Shown here: positions 142-49,885 of the stretch, one piece after another
Layout of the letters: the number at the start of each line of letters is the position of its first letter
How positions within the stretch are numbered: position 1 is the stretch's first letter
Assembly: GCA_973895155.1 (NCBI GenBank)
Contig: OZ316897.1
Coordinates: 18,863,111 to 18,927,110, forward strand
Source: Marsupella aquatica
Taxonomy: Eukaryota; Plantae; Marchantiophyta
Length of the DNA stretch: 64,000 bases
Direction: 5' to 3'
Translations under genes and position numbers: made by a program
Notes under the pieces: model-generated
Seen by the model: only the letters and a program-made list of their open reading frames with translations
What the model was told of the DNA's origin: nothing
The model's database searches: none

Positions 142-325
142 CTTAACGCGCCCTAACCCTAATCGGGTTTTCACCCTCAGCCTTACCTCCGGCCTCTGCC
201 CGGGTTCCATGGTTGCCCCTAATTGTTTATATTTTCCTTGTTTTGTCCCTATACTAAGGTGTTCCTAGGGTGCCTTCCTGCTTTACCCACTTAACCGGCC
301 GAGTGATTCCTGTCTAGGCATCACA
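142..325 (-). repeat. First 184 bp of the 3' LTR, interrupted by the nested insertion
   Basis: Nearly identical to 11019-11202; begins TGTGATGCCTAGACAGG on the minus strand. Confidence 0.92.
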
Positions 326-9500: not shown

Positions 9501-11202
9501 CTCCAGTAGTTTCAGCAGACTCTGCATGCCTGGTTGCTGCATCGGCAAGTCTTCCTTCCTGGGCCTAAACACCTGCTCGATCGTAGGACTAACAGGTGGT
9601 TGAGGCTTCTCAGCCAACGGCCTCGGCGTTGGAGCTTCCTCGGGTGCCCTTACCTGCAGGGGAAGTACCGGGGCAAAAGTCTGACCTCTGGCATACCGGC
9701 ACAACAGCGGCATGTGATAGCCAAGCCGCGACACGCTCCCCATGTCGATTACCTGCTGCTCCTCCTTTAAGATCTTCTTCAATTGGTTGAGGAGGTACCC
9801 GTTGTAGTCCCGGCTTGGGTCTGGCCTTTCTGCCAGATAGACCTGTGCCTTGCCGATCTCTGCCCTCGGCAAGTTACAATGCATGGTCACCCGCAAGAAG
9901 TCGATCATCTCTCCTATGTGCGGGTTGGTGCAGGTGTTCCGGAAGAAGCCATTCTTCGTTGATGGCCCGGGGAACGACCGGAACTCCTTGTCAGGCAGGG
10001 TCTTCCTGGTATCAACTTTGGTCTTATTGCCTATCGGCAAGCCAAACACTTCGGCAATTACCTTGGGAGTAAGATAGAAATCCTTCCCATATATCCTCGT
10101 GCAATTGGTCTCGGGTTCCCATGACCCCACGAATTCTAATAGGTCTGACTCCGGTACCTCCGGCTTCAACCATGGTAATCTTACAAAGGCCTCCAAGCCG
10201 GATCCGGCCATGAAGCCTTGGTACTTCTTGGTCTGCATGGCCGTAAAGCATGCATCCTCCTCCCGTGCAAAATGTAGTTGCACCTCCACCGGTAGGGTTG
10301 CCGCCCAGCCCTTCCAGGTGTCATCCCTGGTTGGAATGGCCTTGATGGGATCGACCTCCTCCTCTTCGGCTTCTCCCTGCCTCCTGCTCTGCTGCTCGGC
10401 TGGCCTCTTTGGTGCCGCCGACCTCGTTCTTTTTGCCGGGGTGACTTCATCGTTGACGGCCCCCTTCCTCTTCATCTCTGCTGCCGTGGAGGTTTCTCCT
10501 AGCACCGTTGCCTGGGTCCACCTTTCCGTGCTACCCTTTAATTCCCAATGTATGTCGTTGCAGTTCTTGATGGCCTCTCGGATGCCGACGACGCTGTCTT
10601 TGCAAAACAGAAGATCGTCGAGTTGATTGGAAGTAGGCGTCCACAGGAACTCGTCCTTGATGAGTTCGCCTCCTAAGAAAGCCGTCTTCTGCAGCTCCCA
10701 CAATCGAGCGAGCTCCTGCCGTTCTCGAGCTGCCCTTTCTGACTCCTCGTCCTCGTAAGTCTTGATGTACTCAGTTGCCCGTTCGAACAGGCATCCCCAG
10801 AAATGTGCCGCTTGATTGACGTTGCTCATACCCTCCTTAGGTCGATCGTCGGTATCTATTCTCTCCCCGAGTGCTTGCCTAAGCAGCTGACAGTAGTTGG
10901 CCTCCCGTAGTCATCTGCCTAGTTCGTGCTCGCAAATGAGCCACCATCTCCTGCAAGCGCTCCTTACCCCTCTCCTCTGCCGGTCCTTCTTCCCGTTGAT
11001 CCTTCCTAGCTGCCGACGCTTAACGCGCCCTAACCCTTATCGGGTTTTCACCCTCAGCCTTACCTCCGGCCTCTGCCCGGGTTCCATGGTTGCCCCTAAT
11101 TGTTTATATTTTCCTTGTTTTGTCCCTATACTAAGGTGTTCCTAGGGTGCCTTCCTGCTTTACCCACTTAACCGGCCGAGTGATTCCTGTCTAGGCATCA
11201 CA
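6550..11202 (-). repeat. 5' LTR (4653 bp)
   Basis: TG...CA ends with imperfect inverted termini TGTGATGC/GCACCACA; colinear with the TSD-flanked solo copy at 30520-35209. Confidence 0.92.
7471..11087 (-). pseudogene. LTR-encoded accessory protein (plant-transposon/Athila-ORF2-like domain plus long coiled coil), disrupted copy
   Basis: Same ORF as 30635-34291, with stops at 10913-10911 and 9314-9312 and a 7-bp deletion near 9200. Confidence 0.8.
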
Positions 11203-17225: not shown

Positions 17226-17885
17226 TCAAATCCAAGATATGTGGCTCCTAGCAGGAGTGCCTAGTGTAGGGTCAATGTCATGGTCAGGACAGTAAAACAT
17301 CCCCTTCTTGGGCTGCCCATGCGCTGAGTGATCCCAAATTGTTCGATCATGGGCAAATCCCCTCTGCTGGATAAACAACAGGCAGTCCTTGTGCCATGCC
17401 TTAGGACACCTCATGCACTGAACCAAAAAGCCATTAGCCCCATCATTGGGCCCCTGTCCACAAGTAAGACAAATATGGAGTCCACATGATGCTGTGCCAG
17501 GAACCAAACACTGCCGACAGTAAAACTGGGCACAGAGAGGGTCTGGACATTTTCTTACCTCTTCACCAATTTTTCCAGACACATGGCACTTAAAGCAAGA
17601 ATGTTCATCATTCTTGCAATCAACACAAAGCCATTCTCCAACATGGCCATCAGCCAGGGATATAGTTGGGCATAGCCATTGCTGACCCAAAGGACAGGAA
17701 ACATTCTTATGGAAATGTCGGTGGCAAGGCCCATCACAAACAATGAGATCCCCTCCCTCATCACAAATTGCACATACATGTGGACTATTTTGGTTAATCT
17801 CAATGTCTGAATATAAGGCCAATTGAGGTGCTTGAGAGGATTCACCTCTGCAACGATTCATGGCCTTCTGCTTATTGCGAGCCAT
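17226..17885 (-). CDS. EDM2-like composite PHD-finger protein (219 aa) with histone-H3-like N-terminus; transposon cargo
   Basis: VCAICDEGGDLIVCDGPCHRHFH...C..C...H.CFKC...KC...C..FY...CGLHIC..C...CMRCPKAWHKDCL...YCPDHDIDPTLGTPARSHI follows the EDM2 PHD module, including its C-terminal YCxxHxIDxxLxTPxRxH motif. ATG at 17885 is in an ACCATGG context and gives MARNKQKA. Intact and intronless. Confidence 0.85.
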   Translation of the reverse strand: MARNKQKAMNRCRGESSQAPQLALYSDIEINQNSPHVCAICDEGGDLIVCDGPCHRHFHKNVSCPLGQQWLCPTISLADGHVGEWLCVDCKNDEHSCFKCHVSGKIGEEVRKCPDPLCAQFYCRQCLVPGTASCGLHICLTCGQGPNDGANGFLVQCMRCPKAWHKDCLLFIQQRGFAHDRTIWDHSAHGQPKKGMFYCPDHDIDPTLGTPARSHISWI

Positions 17886-18506
17886 GGTCCTGCACACTCA
17901 GACCCTACATCAAATTGTGAAACAAGAAGGAATAACAGGGTGCAACATGACACAAAAGAATGAGGGTGCAGCATAAAATATGACATGTAACCACAAGCAC
18001 AACTACATTTCACTACGTCGTGACTTCCTTTCGCGTCATGTGACACGACGTTACACCCCAGTACATCTCCCTCTACGTCGTAACCCAAAATGGGTTTACC
18101 CATTTGACTTTCCTTCCCATTTTACGTCGTCTAGAGGGTCTTTAATTTAACGTATCTCCCAATAGGGCTATTTACGTCTTTTATAACGAGGCAAACATGT
18201 AGACGTCGTCCCAGACGGTGTAGCAGAATAGGGTTGGGTCGACGTATAGATGTACGTCGTTTCAGACGTGGCTATAACAGATACTATGATATGACGACGT
18301 ATAATGGATGTTGGGCGATGTTAGACATATATGACCAATGTGGGAAACAACGTTAATGGAATCCAATTGGCATGCGTAAGGTTTTTTGCGGGAGTTTTTG
18401 GGGCAAGGCTACTGGGACCTCACTGCACAGGTCATTCGTGATTTCAGATGTCCTACGGGTACGATAGTGCACAGAATTTGCAGAGTGAGATTGAAAGTCT
18501 TCAGCT

Positions 18507-19067
18507 ATGGTACGTAAGATATTCAAGGATGTCCACTGTTGTTTTCTTCCGCTAGGTGAAGAAGACAAGACTGTTCATGGCTTTTTTTGTCGTGGAGGTG
18601 TGATAGACAAGTTTTGTAACTCAAAGACGGAATACTTGCTTGCCAATACCTGGAAACAAGTCACAGAGCACTTCAGTGACTATCCTGGATTGATCGAGCA
18701 CTTTGCAGAGTCCGTGCATTTCATCTCGATTTGTTGGGTACAGTACTCCATTCTGGGCAATAAGGAGTTGGACCCAGAAGAGTTTTTGCTGCATCCAGGG
18801 GATGATTTGATGCTGGACGATACGCCCAAGGATGATGATGGTGAGGCTTGTCCACCAAAGTTGGCTAAATGTCAGTTGTCACCGACTAAACTTGATATTG
18901 TGATGTATGACTACAAGGAAAGCTGTGCAGCTGAGATTGAGGCTGAAAGGCTGAAGGTTGGTGAAGCAGTGGTCCGCAAGAAATGGAACGCCAGCAATAG
19001 GCGTGATTTGTACAAAAAGAGGAAGGCAGATGAGGAGTACTACTGGTCTGGTGAAGGGACCCCTTAA
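18507..19067 (+). CDS. Unknown cargo ORF of element B (186 aa), convergent with the transposase
   Basis: Open frame with protein-like composition, flanked on both sides by ACGT-motif arrays; no recognisable domain. Confidence 0.5.
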   Translation: MVRKIFKDVHCCFLPLGEEDKTVHGFFCRGGVIDKFCNSKTEYLLANTWKQVTEHFSDYPGLIEHFAESVHFISICWVQYSILGNKELDPEEFLLHPGDDLMLDDTPKDDDGEACPPKLAKCQLSPTKLDIVMYDYKESCAAEIEAERLKVGEAVVRKKWNASNRRDLYKKRKADEEYYWSGEGTP

Positions 19068-19703
19068 GCTACACTAGTGCCAAGGTCAGCTGGAGACGGA
19101 GGAGCATCATTTGCCTAGGATTGGAATCAGTTTAGACTGGAGTCAGACTCATGCCTTATGTGCACGTTGTATGTTTCTGAGCGCATGAATAAAAAGTCCC
19201 TCCCAGGCAATTTATATTTGTAATGTGTTTTGTGAGTAACGTCGATTGAAACTTTGAACGTCATCAGAAGAATGGTTAAATAAACGTTTACGTCGTTTAA
19301 GACACGGTAACACAATCAACGTCGTCTAATACGAGGTAAACCAAGGACGTACTATGTATACGTCGTTTGTACAACGTATCTACGACGTAACTATAGATTA
19401 ACGTCTTCATTATGGGTATAAGCGACCTTTGATTGTCTAATGACGTTGAGGTTGACGTTAATAAGTTCGAAGTGTCAATTGGCCTACGTGATAAGGGTTT
19501 ACGTGCTAGGACCCATTGAAGGTTGTTCGAAGGCCGAGGTTTAATGCTTTTTAATGTGTTCTTAGCTATAAAGTGAGGAAAGACGAAACTTTGCACAACT
19601 CTCCCTCCAATTTGCCAGATCTCAAACGTCGAAACATATGTCAATATATATGTGGAAGGTGGGCATAGCCAATACATATAAATGGAGGGTGTGAAGGATA
19701 GTG

Positions 19704-22700
19704 TCAGTCCGCATCGTCTGCAAGGACTGATGCCATGAAGCCCTTCCTTCGCCGAGGGAAAATTGGTATGACAATGGACCATCCTCTCATGGTCTGCATC
19801 GGAACCATAATGCACTGATCCACCTGGCTAGGAAAAACTATGGTGTCACTAAACTCAGTCCCTGTGGGTGCAACTCGGGTTGTGTCCACGCGATAAAAAC
19901 CACACTCATCCGCAACCATCGTAGCTCTCGCTGGGGGTGACATGATCGACTTGTGCCACCTCACCTCTAGTACAGTGGTGACAAATGACCCAAAATGAAC
20001 ATCTAAAATGTCCACAACTGTCCCACAATAAGGAACCTCTACATCATCTACATCAGTCATCATGAAGATTCCAGAGTTACAAGTACTCTTCTTCATATGG
20101 TCTGTCCTCCAAGTCCGAAAGTGATGCCCTGACTCATACATGTGTGTATGAGTCGTGGCCCGCATCCCTGGCCCTCTAATGATGTTTTGTACATCAATGG
20201 GAATGGATGTAGACCCATGCACAGCCAAGAGCCTCTCCATGCGCTCCAAAGCCCAGACATGAAATGATGCAATGCCACGACCTGCTTGCGCAACTCCCAC
20301 TTGAAGCTCCAACCATGCACTGCCAAATACGTTGTCACAAGATTGTTAGAGATTTGCAGCCTTCTCAAATCCAATTCACAATCGATTAAAATTTTAGAGT
20401 ACCATACCTATACATCTCCCTCCAATCAGACATCTCCGGTCGATTCCCCAACACATAATTATGGATCTGTCGACGAAATATGTCATCATCCAATGATCGC
20501 TTCTTGGCCGCACCCATCAATCGCAGCCCACCATTGTCATCATCTTGTGCCTCTTCCCAAGTTGTGGGAGCTTTGCTATCCAAACTCCCTATCACCCCCC
20601 GAAATAGAAAAGACACTCTGACATAATGAACCCTGTTGCCATACGTCCCTCAGGTCGAGCGGGTTGACGCACCCAACCCTTGAGCACCTTCATATATCGC
20701 TCAACCCAATACATCCATCGGGCATGGACTGGGCCTGCAATGGCAACTTCATCCACCAGGTGACATAGCAAATGCATTTGCATGTCAAACAGTGCTGGGG
20801 GGAACACTCGCTCCAAATTGCACATCACTTGCGCTGTCCTCTCCCTCATCAAAGGAATCTCTGACTCCTTGATCTCCTTGGCACATACCCACCTATGAGG
20901 CACTCAAAAACATGACAGGAATAAATATCACCGCCCAATCTGAAAGTGGGCTAAGATGGTTACCAATTCAATGCCTACTAACATTCCCTCTACTAAGATT
21001 CCTACAAACGTCGCTCTGCAGGACGTTCCTGAAGAGGGGTGACTTATACGACCTTGAATACGTCGTATGTGGAGTCTTATTTTTACATTACCTAGTTATA
21101 GATGACGTAAAGTATTAAGAGACTACGTATCCTCTCTAGAATGTCGTTTGAGACACCATAAATTTATGGTCCCATAACACCACAAAATCCACGAGTAAGA
21201 TATTTCCAACCTGAAAATGGAGCACAACTCGTACACTGTGAGTTGGAGTAGGTGGCGCTCTCTAGAATCATCGCAACAATGCAACACTGCAGGGAGCACA
21301 TGCTGTATCAGCTTGTGATAATCGTGGGACTTCAACCCTATCGGGGGGATGTACTCATTCCTCGTTGTGCACCCACGGAATCCAGCTCTGTAATGGCTCG
21401 GGAACTTCATCTCACAAATCATCCCATTCACATCCTTCAGAATGTCTCGAGGCAAAATCCAAGGGGCTGGTGGTGTCACCCCAGTACGTGCTGTCCAATA
21501 ATTAAAGAGAATCAACTTGTTAGGGTTTGGGGTTTCAGGCAAATCCGGGCAACTTCTTACAAATTAAGGGTTGATCGATGTTTTATCATGTACCTGATAT
21601 CCAACAGCTCTTCACAACTCCTACATTCTTTGCATCCACACGAACTCCACGAGTATCATTCTCACCATACATGTGCTTCACCAAATTCTTTGCGACATTC
21701 ACTTCAATGTGCATGGGGTCCAGTAGCCACCGGATCTTGAGCATCTGCTTGCACAACATGGTAATCAAGTGAAAAACTCTAGCATTATGAGAGTTGATGA
21801 AAAAATCTATACACAACATTTGATAGGTGTATTGTACCTACCCTCCAATAAGGCAAGTCCCACAATGCTGAGCGTCAGTTTACTCCACAATCTTTGGGTT
21901 TCAGCAGCTTAGCCTCCACCATCTCTGCCATTTGAATTTGAGCTTCTGCTGAAGGCGCATTAGGACATGGTCTTAACTCAATCTGTGCCCAATGTCTTGT
22001 GTTACATCGCATGGGGTCATCCATTGACAATCTCATCCTGCTGCCCTCATATGTGGTTTTGTGCAATAGTACTGAGTACCTCCCATGCAACTCAGGGCCA
22101 CATGAAGGGCAACCTGAGTACCCAGCCACCTTCAAGCCTGATATTGTGCCCATGCCTGCCAAAGAAACCCCATCATATTCCCACAATAAAAGAAGCCAAA
22201 TGAAGACATAAAGTCATTTAGCACAATATAATCACATTTTGTAAGGTTTTTGAATTACCGGGCCCATCAGTGGTGCAATGGGTGATCATGACTCTCATGT
22301 TGAATGTCCTCCCATTGTCCGGTGCACGGGTGACATCTGTTGTTGGAGCCCCAATTTCCCACAAGTCATGTAGCTCTTCATAAGCTGGGGCCAAGCAAAC
22401 ATCTGGATTCTTGCAAGCCTCGGGACCGGGAATGATAGCTAGGAGGAGAACATGACCTTTTTTCATCGCCAACCATGGAGGGATGTTCTGATTTATCAAA
22501 AGAACTGGCCAAATGGACTTTGGTTTCCGTCGCTGCTTGTATGGGTTTACCCCATCTATGGCCAACCCCAACCAAACATTCCGTGGCTCTGCAGCAAAAT
22601 CTGGCCATGTGGCATCAATGTGCTTCCATGCTGGACTATCTTGGTGATACCGCATTATCCCTGTTGGGGATTTGGTCTCGGCATGCCAAGTCTGTAGGGA

Positions 22701-25606
22701 GGATAGGTGTCTTCGCCGGTATAGATGCTGCAATCGGGGTGTGATTGGAAAATACCTCAGTACCTGAATGTACAACAACCATGAGGCGGCATTTCGTCGT
22801 TAACATCACAAATATGTTGACGATAACTACGTTCCAAAAATCTTTACGATGTTCAATACGACATATTACTTCTGTATTGAACATAACTACGTATCCTAAA
22901 AGTGAATGACGTTATAGTTTCATGTTGAGCAGATCTATGTTCTCTAAACTTTTACGTTGCAAAAAGCAACGTTGGACTAAAAAACGTCGTATGGAAAGAC
23001 GTAAAAATCACAAGGGAGATGTTAGGGTTATTTACTTCTAGTTGAAAGACGTACTACTCACGAGGGCAACGTTAAGGGACACAAAATCCCGTAAAGTAGT
23101 CAAAAATTACTAAAATACAGATGTGGTACAGAGAGGATGTCATTACCTTCTCAGCAATCTTGTCTCCAATGGTATCAGGACGATACCGTGGAAGGCCACA
23201 TCGCTCAATTGGGCAATGGGTGAGGTCCAAGTACGGTCCTCTATACAAGATGCACCCATGAGGGCACATATGTATAGTCTCTAACGCCAGTCCGATAGAT
23301 GATAACAACTTCTTAGCCTCCCTCACACATCCTGGAAGGTTGTTAGGTTGAGGCAAGAGTTTGTTGTGGAACAACGCAAAGAGTGCATCTGTATGGACAT
23401 CTGATCCATTGAAAACCCCCTGTAAATTCAACATCAAGAGTGTGGCTCCCAACCTGCATTTGCATTGAAAACCACAAAGAAACCAGCTTTTTAATTAGTT
23501 TAAGGCATGCCATTGAGGATGGTCCAATTGGGGACTTAGGGTTTATGCACACCCTTAAGCAACATTACAGTAGAAAAACTATAATAGCACCTCAGAGAAA
23601 TGTACCGTGAGGTCGGGGAACCCTGGAATAGCGGAGTCCTGGATTCAGTTTCCAATTGGTCCCAATCATCTTCGTCTAGTTCCATGACAGGAGGGTCACC
23701 CTCAGGTACATGAGGTCCAAAGTGGATGTCCACAAGGTGCGCAAAAGCATCCTCTTCAAGAATAGGTGCATCCATATCATCCTCTACATCTTCATCAAAA
23801 TCGTCATCATGTGCATCATGGTACTCATTCACATCCTCGTCCACATCCTCGTCCTCATGCACATGATCACTCTCAACATCTTCGTCGTCAGAAAAAGATA
23901 ATGTGGCTCGCATGTGGAACGAACGGGCTGACTCCGTCATCATCGATGGATGAGGTGTAGGTGTTATATTTGGACCATCCTATGCAAGACGTCAATATTA
24001 GATAAGGTCATCCCCAAATTAGACAATGTGTTCCCAATAGTGCATGAGGTAATGAAGGTCAAAGAATCCAATATAAGTCTCACTCTGAGTAATGAATAAG
24101 TGATCAATAACATATATAATCTTCAATGCCAATCATAGTCTACAAATATCTCATCCCCTGCTCGAATGGTGCGGGTGGCATGTGTCAGGATGTAGTGACT
24201 GCATCCCAAGGGCAAACGAGGGTGACTCTGGTCATGGTACTCATGCCACTCAGCGTTGGGGCGGAACCCCAAACGCCGACACCCCACTGTGCTATTGATG
24301 TAACCCGCCAAGTTTCCAGTACGAGGGGGGTAACCATCCATCTGAGTATACCTAGGGTCCAACTTAAGTGACATGCCATACCGACCAAAGGTTGGGCATT
24401 GGCGAGACAAGATACGCCATCTATGGGCCGAATACTTTGGCCCATAAAATGGAATCAACTCGGGCAGGTCCTCAGGTGCACAACCTTCCGGCACCACAAT
24501 ATCCACGAGTGCAAATAATCCAAGACCTACGTCGTCTCCCAATGTGGATGGGAGGAGGACCCATGGCCTATCCCAAACTACAATAGGCTCCCGAACAAGC
24601 AGGACCATAGGGAGGCCAAACTGGGTTGGGAATGAGTCCTTTATGATGTCCAAGGCTCTCCCTCTTAACTCTCTTGGTGCTCGGGAAAAAGAGGCATCAA
24701 GAAAAGGACAGTGTGGCGGCACCGTCCTAGGGGTACGAGACGTAATGGACCGAGGTCTAGTGGTGACCTCTACTCCCCTCTCAATAGGGTGACTCCGAAT
24801 GACCCTCCTCCTCCTATCAAAAACACGGTCTATTGCCCTTAATGTGGCATCGAGTGCTGATGGGGGAACTAGTGCTGTGAGCGCGCGACGTGCAACCTGT
24901 CTCATGTGGTCCAAGGGCGGAGAGACCACACACAAAATCTGTTTCACATGTGAACAAGAGAACTTCAGAAATCAGGGAAAAAACCATTTCAACTAAACAC
25001 TCAAGAAACTCAAGAAACCCAAACATGTTATATTCAAAAATAAGGACTTAATGAATTGAATAGTGTCAATAAAGGTTTATGAATTACCTGATGTGTCGGG
25101 GGTACGTAACGGCCGTGGAGGCCTAAATGGCTAAGGACAGTGGTCCTCTCGTGGGAGACGACGCCCTTGCATCTACTACATGGGCAGGGCATCTTTCGGA
25201 CTGGGCCAATCCCCTGAAGGGCAGCCATGGCCTCTCCAAACCTATCCTCATCCTCCGGCATGGGTGATCGGTGTCGGGGTGTGTGGTCATCAGAGGGAGA
25301 CCTGGACCGGCGGTGGCGGTGGGACTGTCGATGGGACCTCCTATGCCTTCGTCGCTCCCGATGTCGATGATCCCTAGATCGGTACTCCCTATCTGAAGAC
25401 TGATCCCAACTCCTCTCAGACGAATGGTGCCTGCTCCTATCAGATGATAAGTCCCTCCTCCTCTCGGCTGAGTGGTATCTCGACCTCGCAGGTGAGTGCT
25501 CCCTCCTCCTCTCCCTCCCCCTATCATGAGAGCGGTACCTGTCTCGGTGATGTGCACCTCCATCATAGCGATCATCAGATGACCACTCCGATGAGCACGA
25601 GGCCAT
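19704..25606 (-). pseudogene. Multi-exon CACTA transposase of element B, with at least one premature stop
   Basis: Exon 1 (25606-25088) has PCPCSRC...HLGLHG. Later exons start at 23979, ~23453, ~22763 and onward and carry RYFPITPRLQHLY, DGVNPY, DPMHIEVNV, GLKSHDYH and WMYWVERYMKVLKGWVRQPARPEG. TGA at 21877-21875. Confidence 0.9.
24123..25606 (-). CDS. SET-domain (lysine methyltransferase-like) protein; predicted splice 25606-25088 + 24938-24123, about 444 aa
   Basis: SET motifs VGLGLFALVDI, FYG, GNLAGYINS...PNAEW and ATRTIRAGDEIFVDY. Phase-0 donor CAG|GTAATT at 25088 joins phase-0 acceptor AAACAG|ATT at 24938. Confidence 0.8.
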
Positions 25607-26124
25607 GGCCTGCAATAGTACACACACATATACACGCAAACTTGCAAACTCAGCCTTGGAAATGGAACGTCGGGACCACTATAGTACCACAATATTTACG
25701 TCAAGTAAAACGAAGTACTTTCACTTTACGTCGCCGAGAACACAATACACGACGTATTTCTTAAACCCTACGTCATGTACCGTACCCCACACGACGTTAC
25801 AGTAAACCCTACCTTTTAACGGTGTACAGAACAACGTTTAAATGAAAACGTCGTCTAGCACAACGTATTACTAATCGATCAATTAGGGCATCGTCATGAA
25901 AAACGATGTAAATAGACAGAGAACGGCGGAAACACATTGTTGCAAACTCTGCCGCATTCTATTCGGAAAATACCGGGACATAGTGTCGAATGTGAGTCAT
26001 TCGACCATTCCGCACACACCTCACCCCACATCTAGTGTTCTATTCTGTTCGTGGCTCTAGTGAAGCTCTAGTGAAGCTCTAATCTTTGTGAAGGTCATCT
26101 ACATTTGCTCCAAGTCTCGCCTCA

Positions 26125-28131
26125 ATGTCACGTCCAGCTTATCTGCCCCTCAGTATCAACTTTGATGCTGTGAAAGTTTCCATGGAAGACCCAGAGGAGG
26201 TGGAGAAGGTTCGAACAGCTTTGCGGTCAGCACATTCACTGATTGATGCTTTCAATCAGAGTTGGCAATTCATGGGAGGAACTGGGACGAAGGAGTCACG
26301 ATTTTTGGAATACCTTCAGAACATAGAAGAGAACGCTCCAGCATCCGACGTTGAGCCCGACATTCAAGCACCAGAGTTCTTGCGCGACCTTCCGGGGGCA
26401 TCACTTGATCCTCTTGCTTCCTTCCCGCCCTTGATGGACTCAGTCTGGGACTATCCCTCGTTCTCTGGGATGGAGTCGGATTCACAACCACCCTGTGTTA
26501 CTCCCATCAAGAGCCAAGTGAGGATTCAAAGATATGAGCCTGATGATTCAAGTACAGAGTTGCGGACACACAGAAGGCGACGTCGTTCCCGTTCTTTGAG
26601 TAGCAATAGTAGCATTGAGAGGAGACAAAAAAAAGGGGAAGGGAAAGGAGCGCAGAGAAAGAGACAGCCGCAGCACAACAAGAGAAAAAGGGTTGAACGA
26701 GATTCGAGGGTGGACAGAGATAGGAGAGGTCGAAGGTCACATCGACATTCACATTCAATCGGAGGAGGTCATCGGCGAGCTTCTCCTAACCGAACCGTTG
26801 CTACTCTTGCCAGCAAAGAACAACTGCCGGTCATCAGCCTGGCTGCTTTTGATGCGAAGCCAGAGGTGCTTGATGAGAAGGCGCTAACGAATCGAGTGCA
26901 GGTCTGCTGTACGAAACACTGCCCTGGGTGGACGACTTGGAAGGACCTCGTGCACAATACAAAGAAGTTTCAAGTACTCCTCAATGACATACAGGCCGGA
27001 TTCAAGAATGGCAGAGAGATTGATTTTCGACACATCAGGCAGAAGATTGTGAGTTTCCTTGCTGACAGAAGATTCAGGTGGAGAAGCAAGGTCCGAGCAA
27101 TGAAATGCGAGAAGACAGGGCAGTACCGTAAGCCTGAAGGGATGGCCGAGTCGGACTTCAACTTGATCGTGTCTGAACTTGAAGCACCCCCAGACACCCT
27201 AGTAGGAAAATGAGTGCACATGGGTGACAAAGCCACTGCAGCTCGAAAGAATAGCGGACGCCTTCTAGTAACCAATTTCTGGGGGCAAGGAGGATGGCGA
27301 GGGTTCCTCGCAACCTACGTAAGTCTCGGACCCAACTTCCACATTTTCATTTTGCTGCTCCGGTGTAAACCATAGTGTAACGTCGAGATTTTGAAATTAC
27401 GTCGCCTGATTCATTCATAACGTCGTCCATAACAACGTTAACTTTGATTTGTAACTTCATCTTAGACGTACCTTAGGAAGAACGTCGTCCTTGAGACATT
27501 ACATGTACCGCTTTAGTGAAAATGTCGTTAGAGCGACGTTAACTAGATATGCAACGCATGGAACGACGTTAGCACCGATGCTGAGAGGGTTGAATACGTG
27601 CTTAGGAACGACGTTCTTTTGCTTTCTCGCAGAAACGCAAGTTTGGTGTCGATGCCGAGCCGTCGGAGGAGGAGCGGCTGTACTCGAAACGGTATGGCCC
27701 GGCAGCGCTATGGGCCAAGTTGGCCTCAGTCCCGGAGGATCACCGGGTAAGAGCTAAAGTGATTGCTAGGTTGTAGTTGACTTTAGGCCTACTCTGTGAC
27801 ATTAACTGACCAGAATGCTATCATGCAGGTGGAGGATTGGACTCCTCCGGAGGGCTTGGTTGCACGGGCCATCCCTGAGGATCACTTGCCAGCCAGGGTA
27901 CCGCCCGAGGAGGGTTTGCAGGAGGAGGCTCACGTAGATTGCGGGCAGGAGGAGGGAGAGACTCATGGGGGGCGTACTAGTGGCCAAGGCCGGAGGGAGA
28001 GAGAGAGAGCCAAGGGAGGGAGAGAGAGGGAGATAGGGAGAGGTCAGATAGACAGAGGGGGAGGGAGAGGGAGAGGAGGAGGAGGGATGACACTAGGCGA
28101 CCTCCACACAGTAAGGGGAGTAGGCCAGTGA
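26125..28131 (+). pseudogene. TnpA/Ptta-like second gene of element B, divergent from the transposase
   Basis: WTTWKDL...KFQVLLNDIQAGF...FLADRRFRWR...KPEGM...FNLIV pattern and NFWGQGGW resemble En/Spm ORF2 proteins. In-frame TGA at 27211; further exons at ~27633-27746 and from ~27829. Confidence 0.6.
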
Positions 28132-30519
28132 CTACTCATAGGGCTGCAACACAAGCAGATACGTTGTCCCCCAGTACCACTAGCTTAGAGGAGGATGACT
28201 CCAGGTACGAGTTGCGCCCGAGAGGCGTACAACCCACTTCTACAAGCAGGTCTGGACGTGATACCAGGCGGACTGAGCGTGACTAGGGTATAGCCTATTT
28301 TACTTGCCCGACTTCATCCTCCATTTTGTACATATTTGGCCCATAACAATATTATCTAATACGACACTTTTCGCGGATTACAACGTCTATACCATATGCA
28401 TATTGAATGTGTATCCCTAAACCCCAACTGCCTACCCAAATAATGCTCACCCCATTGTAACCCTAGCTTAAGTGTGTTTATAACCTCCAATAAGGTTGTA
28501 TGGCAGGGTCCGACATAATATACGGGGCGTCGTTCATTCATAAAGTTACCAAGCTTCTCACAAGGTATGACCCAGACGTAGTCTTCCACTTTCACACAAC
28601 GTCGTTCATGACATCGATATATGATAACAACGTCTTATCACACCACGTAAACCAATGAACGAATTCACATTACATCAAACGGAACGGTGTCCCAGACATC
28701 GTTACAAACACTGACGTTGTCTTATACGAGGGAGTCAACGTCGTCAATCACGACGTTTTGTTTGTATTAACGTCAGTTCGTGCGACATTCAATGGACATG
28801 GAAATCTACATTAGCCCAGTACTCTAACGATGCATAGGACGTTGTGCACACAAAGAACCACGTTGGCGGTGTGGCAATGTGCGTTGTGTGAGACGACGTA
28901 AGAAACCACATCAATATAGACGTCCGGAACGTTGCCAATTTTACCTTGGGGATTCCGTGTTTCCATTTAGAGTTTCATACGTCGAGATTAGCCTGTTGTG
29001 AGGCAACGTTAAGTTAAGTCAAAATGTAGTTGTGAAGGGAGCAGCATAAACCAATGCTTTATGGATGGCAAAGCACTAGGACTGAGCAACGCAAATAACC
29101 TTGGCCTATGATTGGAAGCAATCACAAATATTGCAACCTGTATGCCTTTGCCTTCTGTCCAGCAGTGCTCACTCACCCTGCCTTTTTTAAATCTGTAAGG
29201 GCAACACAAAACAAATAGCAATTGAGTTTCAGCAAAGCATTGGTTCTCAAGTTTTAAAATGGACAGACTTGTTTCATTGTCTGCCTTGTGCGCAGCAGGC
29301 TAAGACCGATCAGGGCAAATAATTTATATATTCAAGTAGTGAGAGCTACAAAATTTGCTGGGACAGTTTTCTAGTTCTGGATCCTGCTGCGCTTTATATA
29401 CAGCAGCAACCTGAATTCAATTTTTATAGACCATTAGATTGGGGTGTTTCTTTTCACCACGGCTATTACTTCAATGAAATCACTATTGTTTCATGTTTAC
29501 TTCAATAGTCTCGTGGCAATCGAAGGGTTCGGAACTTAACATAGCAGACACAAAAAATGTATGCTAAGCAGGAGGAGAAACAGGGCAATAGAGCAACATA
29601 GCAAGAAGGCAGGGGTAGCATGGCAAAAGGAAAGAGTAAATTGAAACTATGAAACATAGCCAGATTGAAGGGGAAGAAGAGCACAACCTCTTGCAGCTCC
29701 CGTTTCTCCTCCTGTAGCTCCCGATGTAACCTCCCGCAGCTCCCGCAGCACACTGACAAACGGTGAGACCTCCTGCAGCTCTTCCCGCAGATCCTGCCTG
29801 TTGTGACCTCTTGAAGCTCCACCAATGTGACCTCCCGCACCTCCACCACTTCTCTGTAGCTTAGTTATCCCCAATCATAGCTTGCAGCTCCTTCCCAATG
29901 AGCCCTAAACCACTCCTCGCAGCCGAGCTCGCAGCTTATGACCCGCAGGTTATCACCAATCACAGCTTGTCGCCCTTCGCTGAGGTAGCCTCCCGCAGCT
30001 CCTTTGTAATGTATTGTCCCAAGTCTCCTCCTCACCCACTGGTTATCATCGATTGCACGTCGTCGCCCTTTGCAGCTTTCTGAGACATATAGCTCCAACA
30101 TTAACGCCAAATGCTCCGCAATGTTGCGTGACACTGCAACAATGGATTGGAGCTCTTCCGTGGTAGTAGCTCCCAAGTCCTACCGGCTCACCCTAAGCTT
30201 TCCTACTCCCCTGACCGCGCACAGCACCCTGATACAGTTTTTGGGAAGAAACGGAGTGCGCACTCCACAAAGCTGTCTCAACTCGCAACTGAACTCAAAT
30301 GCGCCCCGCACTCCATGCACATTGCCCACCGCCACATTCCTTTGATGAAAACGCGCACCTCAACCACAAAAACCCTACATTTCACAACTTGGGCTCGACT
30401 CGATATTTGCCGTTGTGCACCTCCAATGCAGATTTGCCGACCACTTTTGTTCCGAGGGCCTACTACAAGAACGCGGGAATTGGAGCACGATGTTGATTGT
30501 ATGATCCAGGGTGTGATCT

Positions 30520-33500
30520 TGTGATGCCTAGACAGGAATCACTCGGCCAGTTAAGTGGGTAAAGCAGAAATGCACCCTGGAAACACCTTAGTATAGGGAC
30601 AAAACAAGGAAAATATAAACAATTAGGGGCGACTATGGAACCCGGGCCGAGGCCGGAGGTAAGGACGCTGGGGGTGAAAACTCGATTAGGGTTAGGGCGC
30701 GCTAAGCGTCGGTGGCTAGGAAGGATCAACGGGAGGAAGGACAGGAAGAGGAGAGGGATAAGGAGCGCTTGTAGGAGATGGTGGCTCATTTGCGAGCACG
30801 AACTAGGCAGACGACTACGGGAGGCCAACTACTGTCAGCTGCTTAGGCAAGCACTCGGGGAGAGAGTAGATACCGACGATTGATCTAAGGAGGGTATGAG
30901 CAACGTCAATCAAGCAGCACATTTCTGGGGATGCCTGTTCGAACGGGCAAGTGAGTACATCAAGACTTACAAGGACGAGGAATAAAAAAGGGCAGCTCGA
31001 GAACGGCAGGAGCTTGCTTGATTGTGGGAGCTGCAGAAGACGGCTTTCTTAGGAGGTGAACTCATCAAGGACGAGTTCTTGTGGACTCCTACTTCCAATC
31101 AGCTCGACGATCTTCTGTTTTGCAAAGACAGCATCATCGGCATTCGAGAGGCCATCAAGAACTGCAACGACATACACTGGGAATTGAAGGGTAGCACGGA
31201 AAGGTGGACCCAGGCAACGGTGCTAGGAGAAACCTCCACGGCAGCAGAGATGAAGAGGAAGGGAGCTGTCAACCATGAAGCCACCCCGGCAAAAAGAACG
31301 AGGTCGGCGGCACCAAAGAAGCCAGCCGAGCAGCAGAGCAGAAGGCAGGGAGAAGCCAAAGTAGAGGAGGTCGATCCCATTAAAGCCATTCCAACTAGGG
31401 ATGACACCTGGAAAGGTTGGGCGGCAACCCTACCGGTGGAGGTGCAACTACATTTTGCATGGGAGGAGGATGCATGCTTTACGGCCATGCAGACCAAGAA
31501 GTACCAAGGCTTCATGGCCGGATCCGGCTTAGAGGCCTTTGTAAGATTACCATGGCTGAAGCCGGAAGTACCGGATTCAGACCTATTAGAATTCGTGGGG
31601 TCATGGGAACCCGAGACCAATTGCACGAGGATATATGGGAAGGATTTCTATCTTACTCCCAAGGTGATTGCCGAAGTGTTTGGCTTGCCGATAGGCAATA
31701 AGACCAAAGTTGATACCAGGAAGACCTTGCCTGACAAGGAGTTCCGGTCGTTCCCCGGGCCATCAACGAAGAATGGCTTCTTCCGGAACACCTACACCAA
31801 CCCGCACATTGGAGAGATGATCGACTTCTTGCGGGTGACCATGCACTGTAACTTGCCGAGGGCAGAGATCGGCAAGGCACAGGTCTATCTGGCAGAGAGG
31901 CCACACCCAAGCCGGGACTACAACGGGTACCTCCTCAACCAATTGAAGAAGATCTTAAAGGAGGAGCAGCAGGTAATCGGCATGGGGAGCGTGTCGCGGC
32001 TTGGCTATCACATGCCGCTATTGTGCCGGTATGCCAGAGGTCAGACCTTTGCCCCAGTACTTCCCCTGCAGGTAAGGGCACCTGAGGAAGCTCCAGCACC
32101 GAGGCCGGTAGCAGAGAAGCCTCAATCACCTGTTAGCCCTACGATCGAGCAGGTGTTTAGGCCAAGGACAGAGGACTTGCCGATGCAGCAACCAGGCATG
32201 CAGAATCTGCTGAAACTACTGGAGAAAGAAAAGAGATCGGCATCTGCAACGACAACGGCAACGGCAACAATGCAGAACATTGCTCCAGAGGTAGGCCTAC
32301 ACCGGCTTACAAGGGAAAACCCCTTTACTGGAGACAAGGAAAGAATCAGGCCAGAATCCAAGCGGGGTGTTCGAATGTACGTGGGAGTCTCAAGCTCTGA
32401 ATCTGAGGCAGAATTTCCTGAAGCTCCTACGGATGAAGAGGAGAGGGAGAAGCCGGAAGTCCAAGAAGTAGAGGAGGCAGTGGAGGACTGCAGCCATGAT
32501 AACTTCGGCTATGGGTCGGACCATCACGTTCCAGGAGTAAGGACCTGTGGCCGGTTCATCCCCACACTTCCAAGAGTAGTACGAGGGGACCCCAACCAAC
32601 AGAGTAGCCCTGAGTCTCCCCCACCAGATGTTGCTCCCCCGAGCTTTGACGACATAAAACAGACGGCGCAGGAATTTCAGGAGCGAATCAGGCAGGAAGA
32701 AGAGGCAGCCCTGGCTAGAGAAAAGGATTTGCCAGGAGAAGATTGGCCGGAGGACATCAAGCGGCTAGCCAAAAAAGGAAGCAAACCTCTAGCCACGATT
32801 GAAGAGATCCGCAAGACGGCTTGGGAGCAGAGGCCGCGGTGGATGATGCCGATGACTTCTACTTCCTCCACCTATGCTAAAGACAGAGCCATGGAGTACG
32901 GGGAGATGTGTGGAGAACTGGCGCTCAGCATATTTGGGGAGGAGTTGGAGCAGGGACCCTTTTTCCAGAGGGAGATGTTGGAGAAGCGCCAATTAGAAGA
33001 AGCGGTGGCCTTGGAAAGAAGCAAGAAGGACGAGGTCATCCGTCGGCTTAGGGAAAGGGAAGCCAAAATCAAGGACCTAAGGGTGGCCAAGAAAGCCCAA
33101 GATGAGCTGCGGATTAAGCGGCATGAGCTAAATATCATGCAGGGCCAGTTGGATACCGCACAATCTGATAATCGGATGATCGAGAATCTACTGACGCGGA
33201 CCCAAGGAGAGTTGGCCGATACGATCAAAGAGAGGGAGAAGTGGAAGCGAGAGCTGAGGAATGCAGAGGAGGCCCACATAACAGCCAACAGCCGGGCCAT
33301 GGCGGAGACCCAAAGAAAGGAATGGGCGTTGAAGGGGGAGCTCAAGAAAATCCGCGGAGCCCTTGAGCAGAAGGAGGCCGAGTTAGGGAAATCCTATCAA
33401 GGGATTATGGCGCTGCAGCAGGAGCTTGCGTCCCTGACGGCCAGCTTCAAGGCCGACCTAAGGGAGAAGGATGAGATGCTCGATCAAACTTACGCAAAGA

Positions 33501-40288: not shown

Positions 40289-40301
40289 TTTTCTTCTAGT
40301 G
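40289..40301 (-). mobile_element. Canonical CACTA terminal inverted repeat (CACTAGAAGAAAA); right end of a large CACTA element
   Basis: TTTTCTTCTAGTG ends the ATGAC-rich region and truncates the adjacent transposase ORF. ATA (40302-40304) is the candidate TSD; the partner TIR is not in the window. Confidence 0.8.
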
Positions 40302-42140
40302 ATAGTAAACATATCTTCTTGACATTTGTTCACGAAGATGTCGCGTTCTTTTCTCTTCAATCTCTGCACGCTCTTTTTTTCTCTTCTCCCGCATCAATTG
40401 ATCTTTGAACTCAGTGCAAAATGTGCACTTGGCAAATGCACTTCCCTTGTGAAAGTCAAAATTATCAAATGAGTTTTTCCAGATGTTGTACATAGTAACT
40501 TCAGTAACCTTAGCAAACCCATCTAATTCCATCTTGGTAAACACCTCTTGGAAAATCTCCTTCTTAGTAAAACAAGATGGGAGCCGATATTCAATAGTGT
40601 CAGTGCCGTTGGACCCACCATAGGGAAGATGTGGCATTGGTTCCCCATTTTGGATTAAAATGGACTCCAACAAGGCGCGAGCGTGCAAAGTGCTTGATCG
40701 TGTCTTCCATTGTCCCTGATTTCCATGGAAACCAATTGTGCAACCAGCTTCGAATTGATTTTTGTAGTCATAGTACTTTGTTGTACTGAACCCATGCATT
40801 TTAATAAATGCATCTTTACAAACCACACGTCCCTTTAGAACAAAAAATCCCTTTCTCTTGACTTGCTCCTCTCTACACCCAAAGAGACTAAAGATGTGAC
40901 TTGTTTTGTTGTCACTTGACATTCCATGGTATTCCCTCCTCATTGCCTCTAAGTCCTCTCTGGGCATGTTCAAGCAACACTTCAGCTTGCAACAACCTTC
41001 TCTTTGGATGGAATCAATGGACTCCTCGGTAATTTTCAAAAGTGCCCTCGACTCCAAATGCCTTTTCTTCTTCTCCTCAAGATCAACTTTTGTCCTCCTA
41101 ATGAAATTGTATGGTCTTTTTGTAGGTTTACCATCACCATCCGAATCCGGATCGCCCTTAGTTCAACCCAACTCCATCCACTTCTCTGAAACTTCCTCAA
41201 GGATATCCCCAAGAAACCTTTGAGACGAAATTAATAGAAGGGATTTGATTTCCCACCTCACCAAGCCAGGGGTACCAACACGGATATTTGGAAATAATCC
41301 GGGTTCATTGATATTCACAACAGCAACACCAACATGATCTGCACCAAGAAGTTCATCGTCAACGGCACCTGTTTCAAATGGGACCGTGATAACACCTGTT
41401 GCAACCTTCCGACAACGAGAAGCGTCATACAAATCAACCTCCTCCGCCATCCAGTTGGAACGTAGTGTAAAATCTTTTAATGGAAGATCATTGAAAATAT
41501 TTGAACTACCAAACACGCCAAAATCTCGTAGAGTGCCCTTTCTAGAAACATGCGCAACATCCCAAATAACCCAGGTATGCAAGGCCTCTTCTATTGTATC
41601 AGCTCCAGGGTGCGAGTATGGCAATTTTTGATTTCCCGTAACAATATCAGATATTCTTATATTGATGCGACCAACCCCGAGTGTTTCAGTATGACAAATA
41701 TCCATCGGATTTGTCTTGAAAACGACTCCATTTGCAACCAACTGATCAAAAATGAACATCTGAACTTCATCTCCTTCCTTGAACACGTCCTCTTCAACCC
41801 TTGCATCAATTTTGGATTTATCATTTCCAGCATCTCCAGCCAAAGAGAAATCATCGACATTGATTCTTCGGCGCTGAGTTGATGACCTCAAGTATGCCAA
41901 TGCACAATCCCAAATCATGCAGGAGTCAATTGCCTCAGCCAATGTAGAAAATTTGGGCGAAGGAAATGGAAGTTGACGCGATCCATCAAAACACTTTTTG
42001 ATCAATACCCCAATTCGATTATCCCCTAGACAAATGTTTTGTATAGTATCCTGGGGGTCAACCTTTTGAACTATCCCAATTGCCGTTTCAAATCCATCGA
42101 TCACCAATGACACTTCATCCCCTCGTGTAAAATTGATCAT
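40302..42140 (-). pseudogene. N-terminal half of a Sola-like (DUF7869-type) transposase fused to three Tnp1/DUF8039-like repeats; truncated by the CACTA insertion
   Basis: 41163..42140 and 40296..41057 are in frame across one TGA with no other stops. Three VAxGxV...LG...LPxP...W-type repeats precede CCKLKC, VCKDAFIKMHG, HGN, GEPMPH and FAKCTFC...HL. The family assignment is by eye. Confidence 0.55.
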
Positions 42141-42267
42141 GATAGCGGACTATCTGTATTCAAATAAAGTTAGAAATTGTTAAGTTCCCCATGTTACAAT
42201 CATGTTTCAAAATCTGGACTCTCCTTCAAAAAATATTGTAAAATCACTCAAAACCCTAAATACATTC

Positions 42268-42525
42268 AAGTCGGGTCGGAATTATTTTGACCCTCCTCCA
42301 ACATTATGTCTTAAAATGATTGAATTGACTAAACATTTACAAGTTGGGTCGGAATTATTTCGACCCTCCTCCAACAATATGTCTTAAAATGATTGAATTG
42401 ACTAAACATTTACAAGTTGGGTCGGAATTATTTCGACCCTCCTCCAACAATATGACTGTCTTAAAATGATTTAATTGACTAAACATTGACAAGTTGGGTC
42501 GGAATTATTTTGACCCTACTCCAAC
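42268..42525. repeat. Four ~73-bp tandem repeats with palindrome GGGTCGGAA-TTA-TTTCGACCC
   Basis: Copies at 42273, 42346, 42419 and 42496; an inverted copy near 42628-42644. Confidence 0.9.
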
Positions 42526-43713
42526 TATTAAGTTGAAATTATGTCAAAACTATTTGTGAAACTATCTTGCTTATGCTTTTATATACCAATTTAAAATGCT
42601 AGTTAAGATGACATAGTCAGGTCGGCACGAAATAATTCCGACCCACTTCTAGAAACTATGTTAGTAATCACATAAAGGGGTACAGTAAGTTCTACACATG
42701 CTAGAGTGTGGATAAAGGTCTAGAAATGAGTAAAATATATGATCTAGAAACTAATGTGTAAATCTTAATCTAGGTTTGGCTTAAAGGTATTGAATTAGAT
42801 GTAGTTGAGCTAGTACTTCTAAGATAAATAAATAAAATCACTAACCTGCTCCACAATATATCTCTGCCCACCCTTGTACAAGCTAAATGGGTACCTTGGA
42901 TGCCAGCATTGTAACTCTTAGCACCACAGTGCTCACCAGTGCCCTTACTAAACCTTGCATTCAACCATGCGGACCTAAACAAGGCACTCGGACAAAGGAG
43001 AGTCAGTGATCGTACCAATCACTGTCTAAATGACAATGAACCAAAAAATGGATTGTGGGAGGTCTATACTCAGTTTGAGAGGCAAAAAGCCCACACATTA
43101 CCCAGCACACGAGTGAACACCAACAGATCGGGCACGGGTGGATGAGGCACGCACCCAGCACACAAGTAGACATCGGATAGGGTGTCAGCCAATCACTCAC
43201 GAGTGATAGGTGAGTTGCGAGCACACACCGCTGACAGCTCGGAAGTTTAAAATTGGTAGGTGAGTCGCGAGTGGTCGTGAGTGGTCACACCATCGGTGAC
43301 TCACGATCACATGCAGTGATGAGGGTCTCCATCATTGGCGCGCATTGATGCCTCCGTACCCTCTCGGATCCTTGCCTCCTCGGACTCCTCGCTCGCAGGG
43401 GGTATAGGAAGGCAAGCCTTGCGCTTGAGGCCTCATTTCCTTGCCTCCCTCTTGCCTCCTCTCTTTCCTCCTCTCCGGGCTCCTCTCTCGTCTCCTCACT
43501 CCTTGCCTCCCTCTTGCCTCGCTCTAGGGCTTTTGTTTTTGCCTCGCTCTTGGGATTTTGTTTCCGCCTCGCTCTAAGGCTTTTATTTCCGCCTTTCTCC
43601 CTTCCCTTTTGGGTCGCTCCCTCGATCATTGTTTGCCTGTTAGTGCCCTCTTGCAGCCTGTGGCATTCTCCATTGCTGCCACATGTCATCTTAAATCTCA
43701 CTCGCCCCTTACA

Positions 43714-48923: not shown

Positions 48924-49379
48924 GAGATAGGGTTGCTCTAGTGCCTACCCTGAATTGTACATTCATATTATGTCAAAGGATATGTTTTGAACATGTAGGA
49001 TAAAGTAAATAATTAGGATATGCTTAGTGTGAGGCTCTCTCACTGGACTGGACAATTTAATAATTATATAGTGGGTTAATCTCATTTTGACCCTTGATTT
49101 ATGACCATCTATATTTTTTAATTTATAGATGGTCTGAGTGGTATTGGCCTCTGATTTTTGGACTAAATCAAATTTAATCTAATTTTTAAATTAATTAGAA
49201 TATATGATTTAAGTTATTATTAAACATTTGGGTGAAAAAAAACAAAATTTTGGGCGTTCAAAAGTGTATATTTGGGCTGAAAAAAATTAGCTTTTGGGAA
49301 TGCTTTAATAGAAATTTGGCCTGAAAAAATAACTTTAGGGTCCATCTTATGGACTTTTAAAAGTACAATTTTAATGAAT

Positions 49380-49885
49380 ATAGTGATGGAGGCTTATGCT
49401 ACTCGTTACCCAGGGGACCTTTTCTACCCATTTGCCATGGAGGTCTTTGGAGCGCTGCACGTGACTTTTGACCAGTTCTTGCGCTCCTGTCCGGTTCATT
49501 ATGTCGAGCGACGGCCTTATCCACCCGTCTCTGTTATCACATCCTTTTTTAGACAGAGGGTGTCCATTGCACTTCAGCATGCACAGACCTTCACTATCCT
49601 TCGTAGAGGCGAGGCAGTTGGAGTCCGGGCATCTAGTCGGCTTCCATTGCTTGACCCCCCTATGCAGTTCACGACGGAGCTTTATCAGGCCCTTCACTTT
49701 GCCGTTGGGTAGTCTTTAGGTTTGTGTGTCCTTTGTTCTCTTTGGGCTGGGCTTGTGCCTGGTCTTTTTTGTTTTTGCTCTTTGGGCTTTTGGCCTTTTT
49801 TCTTGTTTTCCCTTGATTGGGTTTTTTGGCAAAGTGGGATCCTGTCTCCCGGTTCAGCGCCTCCTCCTCTTTGGCAGTTTGATAT
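49380..49885 (+). mobile_element. 5'-truncated non-LTR retrotransposon fragment (CRE/RLE-type C-terminus plus T-rich 3' region)
   Basis: FYPFAMEVFGALH...FL...FRQRVSIALQHAQ matches the C-terminal FxPFAxExFG...QRxSxALQ motif of restriction-like-endonuclease non-LTR elements. Confidence 0.65.

Follow-up and report, generated by a model that had tools for sequence, protein, structure and literature searches.

A liverwort CACTA transposon carries a conserved SET-domain exon within the first intron predicted for its transposase

Can a plant DNA transposon derive two different proteins, its transposase and a candidate chromatin-modifying enzyme, from one shared first exon? This question is raised by a CACTA element in the genome of the liverwort Marsupella aquatica, which we analyzed within a window of 64,000 nucleotides (GenBank assembly GCA_973895155.1, contig OZ316897.1, positions 18,863,111 to 18,927,110 of the forward strand; positions given below are those of the window). 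An initial annotation of this window had proposed that a SET-domain exon resides in the first intron of the transposase gene and shares exon 1 with it through alternative splicing. Our data lead us to a reading that we rate as somewhat better than an even chance: the CACTA element carries a conserved and selected SET exon in the first predicted transposase intron, and this exon likely serves as an alternative last exon, yielding a 444-amino-acid protein with a zinc motif and a SET domain, a predicted lysine methyltransferase. The splice junctions on which we rely throughout are predictions from the DNA sequence.

The element that holds both the SET exon and the transposase gene spans positions 17998-29034 (11,037 bp) and belongs to the CACTA/EnSpm superfamily, whose members are defined in the consulted part of the literature by the terminal inverted repeats (TIRs) that they possess and two open reading frames (ORFs) (PMC4158355). 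Its TIRs (CACAACTACATTT) are short, as is usual for this superfamily, and read CAC...GTG rather than a strict CACTA. They are bordered by a 3-bp target-site duplication (TSD), and the empty site (joint 17994>29035, with three shared letters) is present in all four public read runs that cover this DNA; these runs are continuous across the introns and behave as DNA. The transposase is of the Tnp2/TnpD type (Transposase_21, E 3.6e-37; DUF4218, E 1.3e-29). Subterminal motifs of the kind found in CACTA/EnSpm elements are represented by ACGTCG, which occurs 39 times in the 11,037-bp element as against 5 in the 52,963 bp outside it. The motifs cluster near both termini of the element, in its long introns and in the region of the divergent promoter; these clusters might be protein-binding sites. 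Our exon model of the transposase gene, made by hand with the aid of tblastn searches with Riccia proteins, comprises nine exons with GT-AG borders at every intron. In this particular copy, a stop codon (21877) and, near 20600, a frameshift break the transposase frame, and the copy hence does not qualify as autonomous, whereas its SET exon is intact.

All exon borders that the initial annotation had reported hold. Exon 1 begins with an ATG at 25606, extends over 519 nt (173 codons) and ends at a phase-0 donor (CAG/GTAATT at 25088, the slash marking the junction); its RS-rich tract and its CxCxxC...HxxxH motif (C141-x-C143-x2-C146...H160-x3-H164) lie where they had been placed, and the exon is matched by the Pfam family Transpos_assoc beneath the cut-off of that family (E 8e-4, 20 versus 27.7 bits). 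Two downstream acceptors are likewise in phase 0, one at 24938 that leads into a stop-free SET frame of 271 codons with its own stop (ending at 24123), and one at 23979 that leads into transposase exon 2. Joined in silico, exon 1 and the SET exon read in frame through 444 amino acids. The exact SET acceptor is not fixed since another in-frame AG, located at 24962, obtains a comparable value (3.0 versus 3.1 for 24938) on a crude ad hoc scale that involves no trained model and rates every AG regardless of phase. The 143-nt spacer between the SET stop and exon 2 is predicted to double as the 3' untranslated and cleavage region of the SET isoform and as the branch and acceptor region of the transposase intron; polyadenylation would take place within it.

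The SET fold of the exon product is solid, and the identification made from the letters alone is thereby borne out. Pfam profile PF00856 matches the exon above its cut-off (E 5.7e-5; 23.9 versus 22.4 bits), and it matches 26 of the 31 family members at E<=0.01. An AlphaFold (AF2) model with a predicted local distance difference test (pLDDT) value of 86.1 displays the knot-like beta fold of the SET superfamily, and Foldseek aligns this model with LegAS4, MLL1 and SET8 at E values of about 3e-6 (LegAS4 best, E 2.8e-6). In the VIA structural comparison, Set1 and SET8 reach the best Z of 12.6, with 122-124 residues aligned at a root-mean-square deviation of 2.2-2.6 Å; 49 of its 50 listed entries are SET/PR-type by title, the exception being BurB. 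The top clusters of the ESM Atlas are likewise SET-named (0.95-0.96), a weak recognition as its score of 2001 lies below 2300. Profile matches to PDB entries reach only E 0.004-1, with LegAS4 at E 0.004.

An N-terminal helical pair (residues 9-42 of the exon) is followed by a linker and the SET core (about 101-271), in which G138-x-G140, F164, Y187, N209, N215, V266 and Y268 are the key residues. In an alignment of 31 rows, G140, G166, Y169 and S216 are invariant; G138/G140 are retained in 30-31 rows, N215 in 27, Y268 in 29 and Y187 in 29, while position 164 is occupied by Tyr in 20 rows and by Phe, as in the window, in 11. The exon thus has the GxG, the Asn of the NHS motif and the terminal Tyr of SET lysine methyltransferases. 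The His is absent; YINS replaces RFINHS and post-SET cysteines are missing, both of which had been described before and are directly visible in the sequence. In the alignments returned by the tools, V266 stands opposite the Tyr of the ELTYDY motif of MLL1 and Y268 opposite the last Tyr of that motif, and GNLAGYINS is placed against GNLTRYINFS of LegAS4, with an Ile at the LegAS4 switch position. LegAS4/RomA trimethylates H3K14, according to the part of the source consulted (PMC10653858), and since this enzyme also reads RYINFS, the missing His is compatible with activity. LegAS4 and the SET exon have in common the GxG, the Y/F-x-G, the GN-x2-(R/G)YIN and an Ile/Val at the switch, and human SET8, a minimal SET enzyme, ties for the top VIA score. 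Unlike the protein studied here, which is about 20% identical to them, LegAS4 and SET8 have ankyrin repeats or a C-flanking region; neither descent nor transfer follows from the resemblance.

Two properties of the protein temper this assessment. It ends three residues past Y268, without post-SET cysteines. The post-SET part usually closes the pocket, and its absence raises real doubt about activity. Moreover, no substrate class stands out in the VIA comparison, in which enzymes acting on H3K4, H4K20, H3K27 and H3K36 as well as PR domains all fall between Z 12.6 and 11. The protein falls outside the canonical classes of plant histone SET proteins (E(z), ASH1, TRX, SU(VAR)), as it has no Pre-SET/AWS/CXC region, no cysteine post-SET and no RFINHS. 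The SET exon quite probably encodes a catalytically active enzyme; that its substrate would be a histone falls a little short of an even chance. It is unlikely, in our estimation, that the isoform is made and acts on a non-histone target (the transposase, the second protein of the element or a host silencing factor), or that its SET is weak in catalysis and merely binds. The lack of a post-SET region, an identity of only 16-24% to all solved SET structures, PR domains that reach Z 11.5 and the finding of no chromatin reader domain in the 444 amino acids would all fit such a protein. However, the glycines of the S-adenosylmethionine site, Asn215 and Tyr268 are conserved across the 31 rows, the best structural and profile matches are histone methyltransferases, and the basic N-terminus would suit a nuclear nucleic-acid binder.

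The layout of the locus recurs in distant relatives. We compared 24 metagenome loci, among which L004-L023 constitute one family; the independent lineages are five, namely the window, L001, L002, L003 and the L004 family. In all four other lineages, a Cys/His exon that ends at a phase-0 GT is situated upstream of the SET exon, an in-frame and stop-free SET acceptor is present in all five, and in the two other lineages with contigs long enough to include it, the transposase acceptor is likewise in phase 0. In 13 of the 24 loci (12 of the 13 stem from one family), transposase matches lie downstream of the SET exon in the same orientation, and most of the loci without such a match lie on contigs that end too soon. 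Locus L024 (E 8e-5, 504-kb contig) was dropped as unrelated, with no transposase nearby. The family members L008, L010 and L022, each in a different flanking sequence, all start with CACTACA, and L022 (6036-15930) follows the same plan as the window's element, with a divergent gene, exon 1, SET and transposase; its right end is degenerate and followed by an ACA that matches the left flank, and TCGCAAA takes the place of ACGTCG as the subterminal motif.

Two liverworts, Calypogeia fissa and Riccia sorocarpa, supply the closest named homologs. In a tree of 44 SET rows, from which fragments and near-duplicates were left out, the window is nearest to P0001, P0002, P0010 and the Calypogeia sequence P0008; the tree has no outgroup, and hence no origin or donor is claimed. 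P0065, P0092, P0058, P0072, P0073 and P0083 belong to the same SET family at a greater distance, and those from Calypogeia among them have repeated N-terminal Cys/His motifs in place of the transposase exon. A close cellular parent of the family was not found in the searches made.

It is virtually certain to us that the SET cargo is under selection. Among the sister-copy variants, which were drawn from the 40 best-supported of 519 rows, 18 of the 23 listed for the SET exon are synonymous, versus an expected fraction of 0.245 (p 9e-8). The ratio of nonsynonymous to synonymous substitution rates (dN/dS) of the SET core, calculated between L003 and four copies of the L004 family, amounts to 0.32-0.35 at an unsaturated dS of 0.42-0.45 (for L002, only core rows were used; dS between the window and its relatives is, at 1.6-2.1, near saturation and was not relied on). 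The initial annotation had tied its proposal to a non-neutral SET exon, and with a dN/dS of about 0.3 between families, purifying selection is what we observe. These data bear on the possibility that the exon is a functionless fragment of a host gene, captured neutrally into the intron in the manner of a Pack-CACTA. Values of 0.5-1.1 among near-identical copies of the L004 family and the existence of a SET-less sister contig are in line with it, but the former are as expected for decay after insertion, dN/dS drops to about 0.3 between families, the place and motifs of the exon are kept at 33-63% identity, and no host parent gene is present among 27 + 70 homology matches. The synonymous excess in the sister variants and the between-family dN/dS largely refute the captured-fragment explanation, which we regard as barely credible.

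The initial annotation had also considered that the SET segment might be an insert of its own within the element. No TSD or TIR belonging to the SET segment was found, and SET is present in sister copies as well as in distant relatives, at the same place and in the same phase; to this extent its integration into the element stands. It does not extend to every copy: a diverged sister contig, with 42 differences in 297 nt, retains exon 1 and the short intron up to the SET acceptor and then passes directly to transposase exon 2 (joint 23786>24918, runs X2 and X3). This contig suggests a SET-less relative or a deletion derivative, such that some copies lack SET and the exon is not needed in each of them.

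Among the sister-copy joints listed for the read runs, two others were seen; neither 25088>24938 nor 25088>23979 is on that list. In a diverged sister contig, the 103-nt intron 21593-21491 is skipped (joint 21488>21595, run X1) in an otherwise DNA-like run, likely reflecting an intron-less sister family. Joint 22705>24432 (runs X2 and X3), with 15 inserted letters that resemble the start of the TIR, probably stems from a rearranged or internally deleted copy.

Is exon 1 indeed joined to the SET exon? Two contigs, P0040 from Logan and P0112 from the European Nucleotide Archive, each encode a complete SET together with the zinc motif in an uninterrupted ORF, and the two proteins are 55% identical over 408 amino acids, the linker included. 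At the level of the encoded protein, the fusion of zinc motif and SET is conserved in the P0040/P0112 branch, regardless of whether the contigs represent RNA or intron-less DNA. Because both hold the two parts in one ORF, a fusion protein likely exists in this family. The AlphaFold model of P0040 (predicted template modelling score 0.53) has a SET core with a pLDDT above 90, a zinc-motif helix at about 80 and flexible linkers; it does not inform on the packing of the zinc motif on SET. Searches for proteins of the fusion length returned at least five matches among 7,990 scored candidates, and those for longer proteins at least one among 7,993. Two gene models from Riccia (P0044, P0046) also join zinc motif and SET.

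Several observations count against such a joining in the window's own lineage. P0040 and P0112 fall into another clade of the SET tree. Six models (P0028, P0077, P0081 and P0113 from Riccia, as well as P0041 and P0066) connect pieces of SET to the transposase instead, and since the automated Riccia models disagree on what SET is joined to, gene models are weak evidence on the fusion. Selecting acceptors by frame is circular; when scored phase-blind, the in-frame SET acceptor ranks first in three of the five lineages, second in L001 and third in L002. AATAAA was not seen in the 143-nt spacer downstream of the SET stop. Finally, an in-frame Met is found 1-12 codons into the exon in four of the five lineages (window M12 at 24905, L001 M1, L003 M6, L008 M4; in L002 the corresponding residue is M33), so that the SET exon could be translated without exon 1.

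The last point leads to the idea of a nested stand-alone SET gene, with either a transcription start of its own, inside the short intron or close to it, or a non-coding leader, whose translation from Met12 would give a 260-amino-acid protein without the zinc motif. Met12 is retained in P0001 and P0003-P0006, hence in the clade of the window, and is located where homology begins; regulators of Arabidopsis Spm elements can, moreover, be separate genes, as stated in the part of a recent study consulted (bioRxiv 10.64898/2026.08.24.746577). Yet merely 149 nt separate the donor from the SET exon, an in-frame and stop-free acceptor is kept in all five lineages, P0008 lacks an early Met, and P0040 and P0112 unite zinc motif and SET in one ORF. 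A stand-alone SET gene is an improbable, though by no means negligible, explanation.

A protein comprising exon 1, SET and transposase, generated via a donor inside the SET exon, appears highly improbable. It would resemble SETMAR/Metnase, a domesticated host fusion that unites SET and mariner in one protein and whose SET domain appears among the VIA structural matches; the window likewise has SET and transposase in one locus, here as predicted alternatives on a mobile element. The six models that link SET to transposase exon 2 would fit a three-part protein, but they exit SET at differing points and most of them lose the terminal Tyr motif, and the stop right after this motif is conserved. 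In the window, no GT donor is present after Y268 and ahead of the stop, and use of the last phase-0 GT (24144, TTT/GTAGAC) would remove Y268; with the stop following Y268-DWH, a complete SET-transposase fusion is excluded in this copy.

We consider it probable that the element makes the isoform in which exon 1 is joined to SET. In this preferred reading of a shared first exon, one promoter upstream of 25606 would produce a transcript with the exon 1 donor. Splicing of this donor to the near acceptor (24938 or 24962), together with cleavage in the 143-nt spacer, would give rise to the basic zinc-motif-SET protein, while splicing to the far acceptor at 23979 would skip the SET exon and yield the transposase. 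The basic R/S-rich tract and the zinc motif would be common to both products, and any one transcript would give only one of the two. Di- or trimethylation is favored by a switch residue other than Tyr and by a Phe at position 164, and the enzyme, lacking a Tyr at its F/Y-switch position, might accordingly add two or three methyl groups. With less assurance still, it may act in the nucleus on the chromatin of copies of its own family, thereby permitting escape from, or redirection of, silencing, and it may be guided there by the product of the divergent gene at the ACGTCG clusters. We infer that a chromatin target favoring the element is the likeliest reason for the long retention of SET.

How does this arrangement compare with known systems? 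In maize En/Spm (TnpA/TnpD) and in Arabidopsis AtENSPM3 (AT2TE20205), one gene gives rise to the transposase or to a regulator by alternative splicing, and in the main text of the source as consulted the terms 'SET domain' and 'methyltransferase' do not occur (bioRxiv 10.64898/2026.08.24.746577). Our element belongs to the same superfamily, with splice alternatives that we predict from phases. It departs from both in that their second product is a TnpA-like DNA-binding factor, whereas here the alternative exon, which is nested in intron 1, encodes a SET fold, and the TnpA-like candidate is a separate divergent gene. A SET on a DNA transposon of the EnSpm superfamily has been described for the red-algal Plavaka element PAG2 of Bostrychia, for which a role in chromatin was proposed; in the passages available, its SET belongs to an accessory gene of its own, in which it is fused with a DNA adenine methylase domain, and sharing of a transposase exon is not described there (bioRxiv 10.1101/2025.02.11.637652). 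SET genes are likewise carried by HarbingerS and MuDR elements of Phytophthora (PMC12730594) and by Helentrons, in the latter as an intronless separate ORF with 50% similarity to Clr4 (PMC4067079); as far as these sources were consulted, they are transposons of other superfamilies and hosts, and the Helentron SET is close to Clr4, unlike the family studied here, for which our searches returned no close cellular parent. None of the transposon-borne SETs of oomycetes and red algae was assayed in the passages covered. Anti-silencing by an element-encoded factor together with short non-coding motif clusters is known from VANDAL/VANC, an Arabidopsis MuDR system, according to the parts consulted (PMC12730594; bioRxiv 10.1101/2025.02.11.637652). 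VANC is not a SET protein; VANDAL/VANC offers a model of how a factor and motif clusters could work together, and anti-silencing by the element described here is a proposal. Within the literature searched, SET cargo on DNA transposons and alternative splicing of Spm are already known, and the nested layout with a shared exon was not encountered; none of the titles and abstract openings searched describes a SET exon within a bryophyte CACTA intron, a search that did not include Repbase and most subscription journals.

Table 1. Coordinates of the predicted and observed features of the CACTA element (window positions).
Feature	Position	Strand	Remarks
Left TSD, 3 bp (AAG)	17995..17997	+	End inspection and empty-site joint
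Left TIR, 13 bp, CACAACTACATTT	17998..18010	+	
Left subterminal ACGTCG cluster, 8 motifs	18015..18300	.	Motif count
190-codon open frame inside the element	18495..19067	+	No Pfam match
Further ACGTCG clusters	19239-19383, 25667-25848, 27380-27609, 28599-28979		
Transposase exons 3-9	23453-23147, 22763-22259, 22155-21842, 21744-21594, 21490-21211, 20892-20408, 20319-19704	-	
Transposase exon 2, acidic	23606..23979	-	Phase-0 acceptor TTGCATAG/GAT
Spacer from SET stop to exon 2, 143 nt	23980..24122	-	66% AT
SET exon, 271 codons and stop	24123..24938	-	Acceptor AAACAG/ATT
Predicted intron from exon 1 to SET exon, 149 nt	24939..25087	-	70% AT; second in-frame AG
Exon 1, R/S/H-rich tract and CxCxxC...HxxxH (25186-25115)	25088..25606	-	Predicted shared first exon
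Divergent 373-codon open frame	26092..27213	+	Candidate second gene
Right TIR, 13 bp	29022..29034	-	
Right TSD (AAG)	29035..29037	+	End inspection and empty-site joint

The divergent frame is probably the first coding part of the second gene of the element. It has no Pfam match, and its best ESM Atlas value (0.83) is uninformative; L006 and L022 have a tblastn match of 27-28% identity in the corresponding position. From its position, we presume it to be TnpA/ORF2-like.

The SET-bearing element is itself inserted in an outer CACTA, whose transposase runs on the minus strand from 16668 down to about 12681 and whose termini were not found. Just upstream of the outer transposase (17226-17897, minus strand), an intact 223-codon frame matches PHDvar_NSD (E 2.5e-7) and PHD_NSD (E 6.8e-7), both above the Pfam cut-off; going by these predicted NSD-type PHD fingers, the outer CACTA is a second transposon with chromatin cargo. 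This nest is flanked by two inverted copies of one long terminal repeat (11058-11202 and 30520-30664; 94% alike), both of which lead into long coiled-coil frames. The frame at 314-3580 has the look of a Gypsy-type pol, which we take it to be. An intron-less, host-like frame of 497 codons (54818-56311, plus strand) is accompanied by a second similar stretch near 56514-57023 on the minus strand; we presume that the former encodes an amino-acid transporter. The cluster of frames at 40296-49712 may be another transposon with enzyme cargo; it includes a NIF phosphatase-like frame (E 5.5e-7) and a 633-codon frame with a weak match, below the cut-off, to the DNA methylase family PF01555 (E 0.0046), a domain that red-algal Plavaka PAG2 possesses as well in the part of the source consulted (bioRxiv 10.1101/2025.02.11.637652).

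Taken to its furthest extent, our reading would be that of an old, bryophyte-wide CACTA lineage with its own minimal histone methyltransferases, in which one splice choice after the shared zinc-motif exon toggles between chromatin writing and transposase production and thus acts as an anti-silencing switch, with the NSD-type PHD readers of the neighboring CACTA as a parallel strategy. We consider this wider scenario doubtful at present.

Transposon-borne SETs inflate the number of SET genes in bryophyte annotations, and several of the Riccia models are indeed labelled 'SET domain-containing protein'. The family described here is compact (a core of about 170 residues), well modelled and distributed across liverwort genomes and moss-type metagenomes, and it occurs in land plants that can be transformed. 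If the predicted enzyme is real, the element would own a chromatin-marking tool. It thereby becomes testable whether plant transposons write histone marks against their silencing, and whether splice choice balances this activity against the output of transposase.

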